The notes below the pieces were generated by a model. It made no database searches. It was not told the DNA's origin and saw only the letters and a program-made list of their open reading frames with translations. A program made the position numbers and the translations under genes. Shown one piece after another: positions 13,801 to 63,504 of a stretch of 64,000 nt of DNA (positions within the stretch are counted from its first letter, which is position 1; each line of letters starts with the position of its first letter). Where the stretch lies: positions 26,288,001 through 26,352,000 of the forward strand of contig OX597830.1 in the NCBI GenBank assembly GCA_951406725.2, given 5' to 3'. The stretch comes from Octopus vulgaris. Taxonomy: Eukaryota.

Positions 13801-14527
13801 TATGAAGAAACAAAACAAAAATAAAGTACTAATGATGATTTATTCGACTAAATACTGCAGAACAGTGCTCCAGCATGGCTGCAGTCCATGAACTGAAATG
13901 AGAAAAGAAAAAAAGTAAAAGGATGAAAGAGAAGGAGGATCAAAGGAATTTTTCTGTAAAAAGAAACGAATACTATGTCCAAAGACAAGACTGATATTCG
14001 ATATCGCACTGCACTCAAATACCGTGAATTATTTTCCTGCTCTGTAAAACAATACACACACCACGTACTCCCACAGATCTCACGTAATTCACTCTTTGTA
14101 TTATGTATCAAGGCCTGCAACATATTAAAATAAGACAAAAAAGGCGCTCTTATAACTGGTTATCTGCTTTAGCCAATGAGCCATAATGTAATTCTTTCTG
14201 TTATATGGACTATGAATCTACCACAAACTCCAGCCAATGACAAGTTAACAGAAACCCTCTGCGTCTATTCAAACACACAAACACGTTCTACCCCAATACA
14301 TCTCTTTCCTCTCTTAACATCAGTCATTTGGTTTTCCCAAATTTTATAGCCTTTGTTTTTCAAGCTTAAGTTATTTTATTTTATTTTAGTTTTGACGGGT
14401 TTTTTTATGAGGGCGCATCTAGATTAAAAGAATACTCTGAGAGTCGATCAAAATGTTTTGTGGGTCTTTGTGCTCTGAGTTCAAATCCCATCCAAAATCA
14501 ACTTTGCCATTTATTATTCCTTTATTA

Positions 14528-15330
14528 GTCACAATGGGAAGTTCTGATTCAGCAGAAATAGCTGATTTGGTCGGTATATATATACTTAATGAAATGGCAG
14601 ACCAGTTCCCATGCATCAATGGGGGTCTATATCGTGATGATTGTTTACTCTACCTTCAAAATGTTTCTAACCACAAAGTACAAAAGGTTAAGAATAGTTT
14701 AGTTAAGTTTTTCCGTACAATGGGCTTAGGCATCGTTTTTGAGGATGATGTAACGAAAGCCAACTTTTTAGACATTACACTTAACCTACACAATAATTCG
14801 TACTTCCAATACCACAAACCATCAATCAATCTTAAGTGTATTAGCCAATCCAGTAATCATTCTAGAGCAATTACTAAGAATTTAGTTTAAAATATTTAAT
14901 TGAGATTGTCTAAGTTATCTTGTCTGTGTTACTGTTATTCTCCTTTTCCCGTCTTTTACTGTTTATATTTTGTACTGTCTTTACTATCCTGTTTTTGTTA
15001 ACATTTTACCCCACCGCAAAAAAATCTCAAATTTTATTTAATTTGCTTTTCGCGGGAAGGAACGTTTCACCGAAGTCGCGTCTCGCCTTCACCTTCGATA
15101 GCGGAGTAGATGAAACCATGGCGACTGAAGAAGGGGAATTTTCGTTGTGTTATATGTCCTGTACTCGTTGTTTGAGAAAAATGTCCAGTTCCTTGGTTTT
15201 GTGTTTATGTTTTCGTTTCTCATTGTGTTCGACGTATTTTTGGTGTCCTATACCCATATATGCATGTGTATATACATGTAGATGTAGGTACGTACATATA
15301 TGTATGTATATATGCATATGTTTTATTTAT
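14528..15330 (+). mobile_element. Penelope-like element fragment: RT core remnant joined to pLTR-like sequence
   Basis: VTMGSSDSAEIADLVGIY..GGLYRDD..NFLDITLNL..YHKP..SNH is a PLE-type RT. Stops follow at about 14890. The sequence at 14920-15330 resembles 31985-32450. Confidence 0.8.
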
Positions 15331-27551: not shown

Positions 27552-27930
27552 ATGGTTCAATCCAAGAAATATAACATAGGAGATGGTGTGTACACCATAC
27601 ATAGTACAGATAATTTAGTAGTAAACGGTGAAACCCCTCCTCAACCTCCGGCCGAAGACGAATTGGATGACTTCGAATTCATTGGGCTCAGTTTGGACGA
27701 AGTTCGAGAACGATGTGAAGAGAGAAAATGGCGTATGATGCGTAATGTGGTTCTTTTCGCAACGGTCATTTTGATTGCTGCTCTCCTAATCACTGCAGTT
27801 GCGTCAGCATTGAATCACCCGAGGTGTAGAGAGCAGCCTCACGTGAACTGGTTCGATGATGCAGTCTATTACAGGATCTATGTTCCGATGTTCCAAGATA
27901 GCGATTCAGATTGTGTTGGCGATATCAAAG
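27552..27930 (+). CDS. SLC3 heavy-chain (rBAT/4F2hc-like) gene, coding exon 1: cytoplasmic N-terminus, TM helix, Cys92, start of GH13-like domain
   Basis: Acceptor tttttcgtAG at 27546-47, ATG at 27552, donor GT at 27931 (phase 1). Translation GLSLDEV..KWRMMRNVVLFATVILIAALLITAVASALNHPRCREQPHVNWF..YYRIYVPMFQDSDSDCVGDIKG fits the SLC3 N-terminal/TM/PRC pattern and the GH13 beta1 region. Confidence 0.92.
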
Positions 27931-28131
27931 GTGCAAACTATTTCTTCTTTTCCAGTTTCCTTCATTTTTTAATGTTTTTTGTTTGTTGTTTGAAATTATT
28001 TTCTTATTTTCTGTTTTTGAAACAAAAGATTTTTCTTTTCATTTCATTTCTCCATTCATTTATGGTATATTTTCTTTCTGAGTAGTTTACTTGAAAAATT
28101 CTTTCGTTACTGAAATCCTATTTGAGTTTTA

Positions 28132-29158: not shown

Positions 29159-29208
<50 letters not shown>

Positions 29209-29212
<4 letters not shown>

Positions 29213-30626
29213 ATAGTTATCGCCATACTAATATGGCATTCTTATAAAAATAAGAAAAAAGCTGTCCGCTTATTAGCTCCATGAGGCCATCGCCTTAAGT
29301 TAGCTATTTGATACACAAACTGTATCCATATAACCTTCGAACAAGGGAGGTCAGTCGCTCCACACTACTTGACCGGCAGCTACAGACGCGTTTCGGGGTA
29401 TTGCCCTTTTCAATGCAGCGTAGCCAGCCAGTAGGTGTCGCTTCCGACAATCTCTGTTCGATGGTTTTATTTACCTAGTTTCGGTGGAATACATCCACTT
29501 GTTTTCAATAATAGAAATATTAAAATAACTAAGTCTCTCTAAAAGAGAACAGCGGCAGCGTTCCCGGAAAATAATAGTTATCGCCATACTAATAAAACCA
29601 TCGAACAGAGATTGTCGGAAGCGACACCTACTGGCTGGCTACGCTGCATTGAAAAGGGGCAATACCCCGAAACGCGTCTGTAGCTGCCGGTCAAGTAGTG
29701 TGGAGCGACTGACCTCCCTTGTTCGAAGGTTATATGGATACAGTTTGTGTATCAAATAGCTAACTTAAGGCGATGGCCTCATGGAGCTAATAAGCGGACA
29801 GCTTTTTTCTTATTTTTATAAGAATGCCATATTAGTATGGCGATAACTATTATTTTCCGGGAACGCTGCCGCTGTTCTCTTTTAGAGAGACTTAGTTATT
29901 TTAATATTTCTATTATTGAAAACAAGTGGATGTATTCCACCGAAACTAGGTAAATAAAACCATCGAACAGAGATTGTCGGAAGCGACACCTACTGGCTGG
30001 CTACGCTGCATTGAAAAGGGGCAATACCCCGAAACGCGTCTGTAGCTGCCGGTCAAGTAGTGTGGAGCGACTGACCTCCCTTGTTCGAAGGTTATATGGA
30101 TACAGTTTGTGTATCAAATAGATAACTTAAGGCGATGGCCTCATGGAGCTAATAAGCGGACAGCTTTTTTCTTATTTTTATAAGAATGCCATATTAGTAT
30201 GGCGATAACTATTATTTTCCGGGAAGGCTGCCGCTGTTCTCTTTTAGAGAGACTTAGTTATTTTAATATTTCTATTATTGAAAACAAGTGGATGTATTCC
30301 ACCGAAACTAGGTAAATAAAACCATCGAACAGAGATTGTCGGAAGCGACACCTACTGGCTGGCTACGCTGCATTGAAAAGGGGCAATACCCCGAAACGCG
30401 TCTGTAGCTGCCGGTCAAGTAGTGTGGAGCGACTGACCTCCCTTGTTCGAAGGTTATATGGATACAGTTTGTGTATCAAATAGCTAACTTAAGGCGATGG
30501 CCTCATGGAGCTAATAAGCGGACAGCTTTTTTCTTATTTTTATAAGAATGCCATATTAGTATGGCGATAACTATTATTTTCCGGGAACGCTGCCGCTGTT
30601 CTCTTTTAGAGAGACTTAGTTATTTT

Positions 30627-30635
<9 letters not shown>
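29209..30635. mobile_element. Retrozyme/Penelope-like array: about 1.07 inverted units (29209-29594) followed by about 2.9 tandem 362-bp units (29591-30635), each carrying a hammerhead motif
   Basis: The unit start aataaaaccatcgaac recurs at 29591, 29953 and 30315. Copies differ at only a few bases. The inverted unit has a 361-bp period. Flanks are (TA)n and (CT)n(TA)n. Confidence 0.9.
29643..29684 (+). ncRNA. Minimal type I hammerhead ribozyme with U3-A8 core (also at 30005-30046 +, 30367-30408 +, 29379-29419 -)
   Basis: GCTGCA|TTGAAAA|GGGG caata CCCC|GAAA|CGC GTC|TGTAGC: 6-bp stem I (one G-U), 4-bp stem II, palindromic stem III ACGCGT, GUC cleavage triplet. Confidence 0.8.
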
Positions 30636-30716
<81 letters not shown>

Positions 30717-30776
30717 ATATAATATTTATAGACATACACATTCACATATATACATATACATACATACATATGTATG

Positions 30777-30846
<70 letters not shown>

Positions 30847-31002: not shown

Positions 31003-31182
31003 GGGTCGAGATGCAACTGGATTATTTGAAGGATATCGGTGTGGATGCTATATCTCTGAGTCCCATATTTGATGGAACATCCGTTGACAGCGACCTCAAT
31101 GTTGTCAACCATACGACTATTGACAATAAATTCGGCACTGAAGATGACATTAAGAGCCTTATTGCAGCCGCACACAAAAAAG
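31003..31182 (+). CDS. SLC3-like gene, coding exon 2 (180 nt)
   Basis: cttttacAG|GG ... AAAG|GTaatc, phase 1 to 1. Encodes GVEMQLDYLKDIGVDAISLSPIF..IDNKFGTEDDIKSLIAAAHKK, a typical GH13 segment. Confidence 0.93.
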
Positions 31183-31472: not shown

Positions 31473-32329
31473 CATATATGTACAAATTACATCTATATGT
31501 ATATATACATGCATGAGTACAGGACACCACAAATAAACGTAGAACACAACGAGAAACGAAAACATAAAATCATACAAGGAAACGGACTTTTTTTAACAAC
31601 GAAAAAACAGAGTATTTATTATATTGTTATTATATGACCGAACGCACGCGTTGTTTCTCTTCTGCAAGTAAGTTTTTATTTGAATAATCATGACGCGCAC
31701 TCTTACTCTTTACTTGACCTTTCCTCCCTGCCTGTCTGTCTTCCTCTCTACTTGTCTCTCTCCTTATTTTTCACCCTTTCTGGTTTCTTCCCCCCCCCCT
31801 CTCTCTCTCTCTCTCTCTTTCTCTCTTCTCCTCCTCTCTCTGGCCGTTGACCGGAGTGCTACTAAAACTTTCTTTCAACTCGTGCTTTCAACAAGCATAC
31901 ATCGACTTCTCTGTCTTTCGCAAGCCGATTTTTCACATGCGTTCGCACTAATTTTTCCACCGTCTTGGCCTAAAAAAGCCCTTATTGTTGGTTTCCTTGT
32001 CCTGTTATTCTTTATATGTACTGTTTTTTCTTTTTTTTTTCTTCATTTGTATTGCTTTTACGTCCTGTTCTTGTCACTTGTTTTATCCCTCTGCAAAAGA
32101 ATTTTATTTAATTCCTTTTGCAGGAAGGATAGTTTCAGCCTGGCCGTGTTCTGCCCTTACCTTCGAAACACGCATTGAGTCGAACCAGGGGCAGCTGATG
32201 AAGGGGAATTTTCCTTGTATTGTTTGTCCTGTACTCTGTTTTTTCGTTGTTAAAAAAAAGTCCGTTTCCTTGTTTGATTTTATGTTCTCGTTTCTCGTTG
32301 TGTTCTACGTTTATTTGTGGTGTCCTGTA

Positions 32330-32383
<54 letters not shown>

Positions 32384-32504
32384 TGTATATATACATATAG
32401 ATGTAAGTATGTACATATATGTATGTATATATGCATATGTTTTATTTATTTATTATATTGTTATTATATGACCGAACGCACGCGTTGTTTCTCTTCTCCA
32501 AGTA

Positions 32505-32510
<6 letters not shown>
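31473..32510. mobile_element. Non-autonomous Penelope-like element with inverted 5' copy and terminal direct repeat
   Basis: About 31473-31614 is the reverse complement of about 32231-32420. About 31615-31678 recurs directly at about 32449-32510. The element ends at (TA)n. Confidence 0.7.
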
Positions 32511-32558
<48 letters not shown>

Positions 32559-60320: not shown

Positions 60321-61100
<780 letters not shown>

Positions 61101-62263: not shown

Positions 62264-63504
62264 GACACGCGCTGAGACTGCGGCATCTCTGGCTCTATGT
62301 AGACGACGGTGAACAGGTGTGGTCGCCGTTTGTGAGGCACGCTTTCCCGCAGCTCGTCTCCATGACCGAACTGCAGTCGTGGATCAAAAGAGGCCGAGGA
62401 AGGGCGAATGGCACCGCGAGTGTCGCGTTGCTCTCAAGCAACTCTGCCGTCCTGGGTCGACCTTAAGTGACTTCAACACAACCAAAGCATTCTATAGGGG
62501 TTTAGTGGAGGGGAGGTACGACGACGAGCTCGGGGCGAACCTGGACGTCGACGAGGAGTACCTGACCCGCCTGTTCAGGACGACTTTCGGGCCAGGGCCC
62601 ATGGACAACTTCCAGAGATCCCTGGCCTGGCAGTGCTACCGAGAAGCGCTACCCGTTCGGGATAAGCTCTACAGACACGGCTCGAGAAACACGGGGCCGA
62701 CCTGCCCGAGATGCGGTCAGAGCGACGAAACCGTTCTGCACGCACTCGTTCAGTGTCCAACAATTTCCGACCTGTGGGCTTATGTCGAACAACTGCTGTC
62801 ACGTGTGGGACGAGTCGGTTTATCAGCTGAGTCTATCGTCAATATTGTCACGCCTCCTTCCTTCAAACGGGAAGGAAGAGCTATTTTCATCATCCTTGTG
62901 GCTATGGCGAAAGAATGTATCTGGTGGACGCGTCTGAAAGGATTGGAGACAAACACTTTCCTCTCTGGTCAATCTCTCATCAACTTCTTCAAGTACCACT
63001 TGAAAAGGAAAGTGAGAGTAGAGAGGCAAGTTTTGTCTAGCGAATGCTTTAAAAAAAGATGGGTGAATGTAGCAAGAATGGCACGTATGAATGACGAAGC
63101 CACCTTGAGCATAGTCCTATGAACCCAGAAATCGAAAACAGAGAGTTGCTTATTTGCAAAAAAAAAAAAAAAAAAGAAATATAAAATGTGACATCATTGA
63201 CCGAGGTTACCGTGGTCTTTTCCGTAGGCTTTTCTTTGCACGGGTAAACCTCACCTGTCCTCCCCTTTTCACTTCATATTGACATTTCTGTGATAACGAT
63301 CCCTATTGATCAATTTTTTTCCTCCCCCTTTTTTTAAACCCCCTTTTTTTTGTCCTCTTTCTCTCCTTTTACGATCCCTTTTGATCGAAACTCCCCTTCC
63401 TTTTTTTTTTTTTTTTTTTTTTTTTTCTTAAACCTTCAAAAGAAAAGCTCTACCTTGTAATTTGTTCTATCTGTGTGCAGCCCTGTGTGGCTAATAAAGA
63501 AACA
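62264..63504 (+). mobile_element. 5'-truncated Tx1/L1-clade retrotransposon inserted in (TCTA)n
   Basis: ORF 62319-63122 has a zf-RVT-like LPVRDKL..CPRCGQSDETVLHALVQC. Pyrimidine-rich 3' UTR, AATAAA at 63493, TCTA repeats on both sides. Confidence 0.85.

Follow-up and report, generated by a model that had tools for sequence, protein, structure and literature searches.

In an intron of an SLC3-like gene of Octopus vulgaris lies an array of hammerhead-bearing repeats that we read as a recent copy of a non-coding family of 362-nucleotide (nt) units with the U3-A8 form of the hammerhead, probably inserted into a TA tract by the enzyme of a Penelope-like element (PLE); elsewhere in the genome the same unit serves as the fixed site of an L1/Tx1-type long interspersed nuclear element (LINE). 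We give this reading a probability of about 0.85. The array occupies positions 29209-30635 of the window, by which we mean the whole stretch of 64,000 nt that was analysed (contig OX597830.1, 26,288,001 to 26,352,000, forward strand), and positions below refer to this window unless a contig is named. Taken alone, the array is nothing unusual within a known class, the animal non-LTR (LTR, long terminal repeat) retrozymes, of which it is a new member. Both U3-A8 hammerheads and retrozymes of 350-390 bp have been published before; what is new, also with respect to a first-pass annotation made from the letters of the window, is the paired-end evidence and the targeting of the unit by LINEs.

Paired ends in a dispersed hammerhead family

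Mobilisation by PLE machinery, as proposed in the first-pass annotation, is supported by a rule that governs the ends of the copies. Our survey of the window-type family A covered 41 clusters in 40 loci, 33 with two outward-pointing arms and 8 with one arm. In 31 of the 33 two-armed loci one arm stops at a short end (unit base ~263) and the other at a long end (~326); the other two have one irregular end each, while short/short and long/long loci do not occur among the 33. Subfamily B, about 80% identical to A, has short plus long ends in 10 of 13 two-armed loci, the rest being one long/long and two irregular. The ends of the window locus fall at bases 264 and 321. The stretch from short to long end makes a tail of 62 nt, and a (TA)n flank is found at most listed ends of the other copies. 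Variants common to both arms within one locus (L083, L086, L027, L018 and others) point to one source per locus. PLE insertions have tandem or inverted arms, are 5'-truncated and carry a tail at one end (bioRxiv 2021.04.23.441226), and the tail of an anole PLE lies between two internal start sites for the reverse transcriptase (RT) of a predicted dimeric enzyme (PMC11167929). Since the retrozyme end rule matches both the anole tail and the tandem/inverted layout, we count the pairing of short and long ends as a PLE signature, and PLE machinery therefore likely moved the retrozyme.

In the mechanism that we propose, an RT-endonuclease dimer of a PLE would be bound by multimeric or circular RNA of one source; priming from both cut DNA ends would start at two internal RNA positions separated by 62 nt, and the resulting pair of cDNAs would then join head-to-head; adjacent hammerheads, cutting as dimers, could yield 362-nt circles. 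The short/long pairing supports, directly from the genome, a PLE-driven spread of animal retrozymes, previously argued from homology and co-occurrence, and it names two priming sites.

The window array (Table 1) has a tandem and an inverted arm, which overlap by 4 nt at their head-to-head junction (29591-29594). The near-identical head-to-tail units of the first-pass annotation are confirmed by Tandem Repeats Finder (TRF): between units 1 and 2 there are 2 mismatches in 362 bases, and unit 3, of 321 nt, matches unit 1 throughout. The single inverted unit described there is present but slightly longer than one unit, and one G of its stem II is missing. Treated as a loop, the unit has no stop-free frame above 55 codons in any of six frames (GC 41.7%), in line with the absence of open reading frames (ORFs) noted before, and a coding role was rejected on these grounds. 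The microsatellites reported on both sides are also there. The left one is the likely insertion target. On the right, the long end is 5 nt short and continues into (TC)15 (30633-30663), a tract that may have pre-existed or have arisen by slippage during priming. Because the 362-nt back-joint occurs in 3 of 4 public runs, taken as contigs, and opposite-strand joints in 2 of 4, tandem and inverted forms of the family exist beyond this assembly. Position 30122 is C in most of the depth of these contigs, so the A of unit 2 is private or an error. Public runs X1-X20, under seven organism codes, contain 83-100% of the unit's sampled words.

The claimed hammerhead motif, its three C17 positions and the extended stem I all match the letters. 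Rfam at its gathering threshold gives no match in the window, as expected for a U3-A8 core. The assignment to the U3-A8 type I hammerheads is backed by covariation of the stems across subfamilies: in 18 sequences of A and B, 95.2% of 414 cells are paired and 6 of 23 pairs changed on both sides, compared with at most 48.3% paired and 1 such pair in the control with slid partners. The core is conserved across genomic copies, a check suggested with the original claim: its 12 positions show 0 of 360 changes vs 5.1 expected from base-matched rates (P about 0.006) in 30 B copies picked by similarity. The cut monomer has a folding z of -7.21, with none of 100 shuffles equally stable. The proposed dimer-type stem III agrees with the predicted minimum-energy fold of two adjacent motifs, a double hammerhead joined through a 6-bp palindrome. 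Dimeric PLE hammerheads are reportedly the subject of a later paper by Lunse (2017).

An exact 33-nt motif pattern has 1003 matches genome-wide vs 0 for the reversed control, so the motif is not a product of chance, and the suggested copy-number check yields several hundred young copies, as befits a young retrozyme family. Unit matches number 188 in 40 scored candidates of 1091, and scaling up from contig C1, which has 80 motifs in 42 loci, gives an estimate of about 500 loci; the family is dispersed as short arrays with fixed ends across many contigs. Older motif types account for 550 matches (control 0) with a pattern that covers the older subtypes only and misses that of the window. The distant subfamily D (2771 candidates) aligns along the unit with a score of 196, vs a mean of 125 and a maximum of 157 in 100 shuffles, and 22 of 25 copies carry a U3-G8 core. 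D copies (L267-L291) have an 8-nt stem III palindrome, and many two-armed D loci show two end classes.

Does the importance of this locus lie in the release of 362-nt monomers or circles from the SLC3 pre-mRNA, as the first-pass annotation envisaged? The host exons lie on the plus strand, which makes the tandem arm sense and intronic, as stated there; two adjacent motifs fold as a double hammerhead in prediction, and mussel retrozymes of similar size (350-390 bp) produce abundant circles (PMC7229834). However, the predicted folds of the complete RNA and of each of four prefixes place the inverted arm in a long duplex with one unit, shielding hammerhead 1 first and later hammerhead 2, and the lowest-energy register frees hammerheads 1 and 3, which are not neighbours. 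With one of three hammerheads swallowed, at most two are free to pair up, and any circle could also come from the roughly 500 other loci estimated above. The sense, intronic placement thus stands, while monomer release here is possible but, judging from the predicted folds, not expected in the form drawn; that the locus owes its importance to such release we consider rather unlikely.

A LINE at one base of the unit

At a number of other copies the unit stops at base 43, is followed by a LINE and resumes at base 27, leaving a 17-bp duplication just upstream of the hammerhead. The LINE is 5.36 kb long with frames of 512 and 1140 codons, intact in L132 and several others. ORF1 contains a CCHC knuckle (PF00098) and ORF2 the APE endonuclease, RT and C-terminal zinc motif (PF03372, PF00078 and PF13966). 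The endonuclease is nearest to L1-type structures, and we assign the element to the L1/Tx1 type, with the Tx1 label taken from resemblance; among 39 homologues there is no named Tx1 reference, the best named one being a Ciona pol-like protein at 27%. Inside the window there is no young LINE, and all four targets are empty.

Among the 30 loci listed, all 16 LINE 5' ends with at least 94% match over the first 400 nt follow base 43, a 17th (L151) having a deletion at the junction, and of the 30 loci listed for the 3' end, the 20 with at least 98% match are at the site and the other 10, with lower match, are not. An exact 3'-end pattern, whose last letter drops some off-target ends (e.g. L182, L184, L192), finds 24 ends genome-wide, with 21 at the unit site, 1 at U1 and 2 elsewhere. 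Off-target ends that combine the young marker with a non-G last letter number 0, by a pattern that excludes on-target junctions.

Could the LINE instead lack site specificity, having landed once in a retrozyme and spread since as a composite by PLE machinery? Carriage of the LINE by retrozyme ends does occur: at L166/L217 a LINE tail lies within a head-to-head arm, and at L197 a LINE together with a foreign 27-262 piece sits inside another array. Short and long ends are kept in 11 of 11 two-armed LINE-bearing loci by alignment (8 of 11 confirmed by motif reading), and most LINE copies are full-length. A single landing does not, however, account for L196, where a 5'-truncated young LINE, 1-4 substitutions from the youngest group, is joined at base 43 to the flank of an older retrozyme variant, and the duplication begins with that variant's own base. 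It is equally at odds with the 69-bp LINE tail at the target site in L201, with arrays on C2 in which LINEs alternate with target-site duplications (five nested copies at G000:C2:73044600-73069000), and with the presence of all four combinations of LINE variant 4550 and flank variant C78T. Together these four observations indicate independent LINE insertions. Separate lineages also occupy the homologous site of subfamilies B and D, and a single origin of the A- and D-site LINEs is rejected (approximately unbiased test, p-AU 1.8e-60). We regard the single-landing scenario as unlikely. In the site-specific scenario, which we prefer, the LINE would insert by its own priming at base 27/28, so that the downstream hammerhead stays whole, and would sometimes be carried along by the ends of the retrozyme.

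Related elements extend the range of targets. One, about 1.7 kb long and often in tandem, has ORF1 but no RT (L213, L241-L245, L247-L266). Its 20 loci, of which 2 are unresolved and 2 share an end, give 17 distinct ends; 15 of these fall at the homologous site, 12 in B and 3 in D. At the D site there is also a full LINE with 83-89% ORF2 identity. Older relatives are tied to the 5' end of the U1 small nuclear RNA (snRNA): one is followed by a whole U1 (RF00003, 125 bits), two start with the first 17 nt of U1, and several off-target LINE ends begin with 4-7 bases equal to the start of U1. Upstream of L190/L211 there is a nested pile of LINE pieces (C18:49.00-49.05 Mb), and L208 sits between two U2 genes. 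In a tree on 800 nt of ORF2, with group names assigned once the first tree was known, without L219, rooted on a long branch and with recombination left out of the model, the A-site copies are nested among U1-linked ones; since neither A and D together (p-AU above) nor the U1 copies (p-AU 2.8e-6) can be held as one clade, at least two target switches are indicated. The window itself contains pieces of a LINE of this type that is more distantly related (62313-63119 and 60480-60706; 62-68% identity to the young family); they served as outgroup.

What decides the target? The hairpin loop of the endonuclease is identical in A, D and most U1-type copies, whereas other residues differ. This loop matters, yet loop swaps are not modular (PMC1950540), and its identity is no proof of RNA guidance. 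Accurate priming by R1Bm requires downstream target RNA (cited second-hand, from PMC7265360), and this precedent together with the unchanged loop leads us to a hypothesis of guided targeting, which we offer tentatively, as doubtful but worth stating: the LINE lineage may have repeatedly adopted hammerhead retrozymes and switched target (retrozyme D, U1 snRNA, retrozyme A) via RNA, not protein. The LINE would be co-transcribed with its host repeat, the downstream hammerhead would cut the transcript 62 nt beyond the end of the LINE, and the leftover target sequence would pair with nicked DNA and guide priming. If so, the LINE would be a hyperparasite that draws on the retrozyme for its promoter, its processing signal and its guide, and at times for transport, making it a natural RNA-reprogrammed site-specific retrotransposon. 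A LINE beside a hammerhead, with kin on U1 snRNA and on two older retrozymes, in any case offers a young, apparently intact system for studying how the target is switched and what determines it, the flanking RNA or the endonuclease, a question that bears on targeted insertion tools.

A candidate driver and the case against it

Which PLE could have moved the family? The candidate that we put forward from its sequence is a young PLE family (L061-L076, L078) with an ORF1 and an intact 781-codon RT-CxxC-GIY-YIG frame, Neptune/Nematis-like by the motif of bioRxiv 2021.04.23.441226, which has a similar U3-A8 hammerhead-like motif, (TA)n flanks and two (short/long) 3' ends. Several points weigh against our reading. 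This PLE has no alignable sequence in common with the unit, the likeness being at the level of motifs, and its tail is about 35-40 nt, not 62. No PLE with similarity to the unit was found among 50 GIY-YIG loci (150 of 6136 candidates scored), nor in 20 further loci; the sole match near a PLE, L049, is a separate older retrozyme copy. The surveyed loci are the best full-unit matches, a sample biased to long young arrays, and most of the compensatory stem changes coincide with the split between A and B, so that they amount to a few events. Some variants occur in only part of the units of an array (L002, L004, L025, L093, L131), which does not fit copying solely round one monomer circle and leaves pure monomer rolling-circle copying unsupported as the only route. 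Self-cleavage and circle formation are predictions; in vitro, PLE-type motifs cleaved weakly as dimers (PMC4209133), and of 9 dimers of Xenopus retrozymes 8 stayed uncut (bioRxiv 2026.07.22.740005).

The scoring of 150 among 6136 GIY-YIG candidates also leaves room for an autonomous PLE yet unfound, with the unit as its pseudo-LTR (pLTR) and the arrays as truncated copies, in keeping with the tandem/inverted, 5'-truncated PLE insertions cited above and with the relation of Xenopus retrozymes to PLE pLTRs (bioRxiv 2026.07.22.740005). Yet in arrays that reach 9-10 units each unit is followed by the next without any coding sequence, and same-strand motif pairs kilobases apart enclose LINE-type inserts or belong to separate loci, with no PLE frame; we hold this explanation to be very unlikely. 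Ordinary satellite DNA from unequal crossing-over with a chance hammerhead look-alike is hardly credible, even though some variants are common to neighbouring units only, as it is contradicted by fixed paired ends, dispersed short arrays on many contigs, covarying stems and a conserved core.

Other features of the window were noted in passing. In the next intron, 31488-31686 and 32240-32520 contain a 120-nt pair in inverted and a 74-nt pair in direct orientation, possibly another small inverted-arm element. A 149-codon frame with a YRDD motif (14441-14887) resembles, by eye, a PLE-type RT fragment. A Bee_toxin match on the membrane segment of the host protein (E=0.086) is below the cut-off and was discarded as chance.

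Table 1. Features of the array, its surroundings in the window and related loci elsewhere in the genome.
Feature	Position or locus	Strand	Remarks
Upstream coding exon, SLC3-like host gene	27552-27932	+	PF16028 SLC3A2_N, E=1.5e-7
(TA)23 microsatellite	29164-29209		TRF; adjoins short 3' end of inverted arm
Outer end of inverted arm	29209 side	-	short 3' end, unit base 264; locus L008
Inverted arm	29209-29594	-	386 nt; unit bases 240-362 + 1-264
Hammerhead of inverted arm	29379-29419	-	antisense to host gene
Empty LINE target, inverted arm	29429-29445	-	unit bases 27-43
Tandem arm	29591-30635	+	TRF period 362, 2.9 copies, 99% matches
Tandem units	29591-29952, 29953-30314, 30315-30635	+	unit comparison
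Empty LINE targets, tandem arm	29617-29633, 29979-29995, 30341-30357	+	unit bases 27-43
Extended stem I of hammerhead 1	about 29628-29701	+
Hammerhead 1	29643-29684	+	U3-A8 core, 4-bp stem II, palindromic stem III; predicted cut after 29678
Hammerhead 2	30005-30046	+	predicted cut after 30040
Hammerhead 3	30367-30408	+	predicted cut after 30402
PLE-type tail, short to long end	30578-30635	+	this insertion end only
Outer end of tandem arm	30635	+	long 3' end class (321-326), at unit base 321
(TC)15, then (TA)n/mixed microsatellite	30633-30840		TRF; adjoins long end
Downstream coding exon, SLC3-like host gene	31005-31181	+	PF00128, E=8.9e-15
LINE-bearing loci	L131, L132, L193-L207, L217		e.g. 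G000:C4:56828700-56834100
Older relatives tied to U1 snRNA 5' end	L190/L211 (G000:C18:49051800), L208-L210

Comparison with known systems

The literature searched, whose scope did not extend to subscription papers and Repbase, yielded no description of retrozyme-targeting LINEs or of retrozymes in cephalopods; a squid genome paper counts 235 hammerheads and goes no further in the part cited (PMC6962438). Animal non-LTR retrozymes are defined by tandem non-coding units of about 170-400 nt with GC <45%, ranges into which the unit falls. Like those of PMC7229834, the octopus family has non-coding tandem units of about 360 bp with GC <45%, a type I hammerhead in each unit and a strongly self-paired monomer. 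It differs from them in its U3-A8 core and in that its cleavage and circles are predictions. Head-to-head arms with paired ends are documented here, while the terms 'inverted' and 'target site' are absent from the main text of that paper.

Animal retrozymes have already been argued to be non-autonomous PLEs (bioRxiv 2026.07.22.740005), and U3-A8 was found in about 1,300 Schistosoma PLE motifs (PMC4209133). With PLEs the family has in common a palindromic stem III, the U3-A8 variant and AT-rich targets (PMC4209133, PMC11167929, bioRxiv 2021.04.23.441226), as well as tandem/inverted insertions with a tail at one end, also described for the non-autonomous Chlamys elements (bioRxiv 2021.04.23.441226). 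In contrast to PLEs, the unit has no coding frame, a longer stem I and a tail of 62 nt rather than 30-40.

Tx1-clade LINEs are known to target other repeats and RNA genes: Tx1 inserts in Tx1D, Keno in U2 and Tx1-Mar in Mariner-N4, with U5, 5S, satellites, LTR and Harbinger elements as further targets (PMC4494074). The octopus LINE resembles them in its ORF1 zinc knuckle, its APE-RT frame, its nested arrays, its single insertion base in a multicopy target and the fixed length of its duplication. What sets its lineage apart from the Tx1-clade elements described there is the choice of targets, namely a hammerhead retrozyme, at the homologous site of three subfamilies, and, for close relatives, the 5' end of U1 snRNA.
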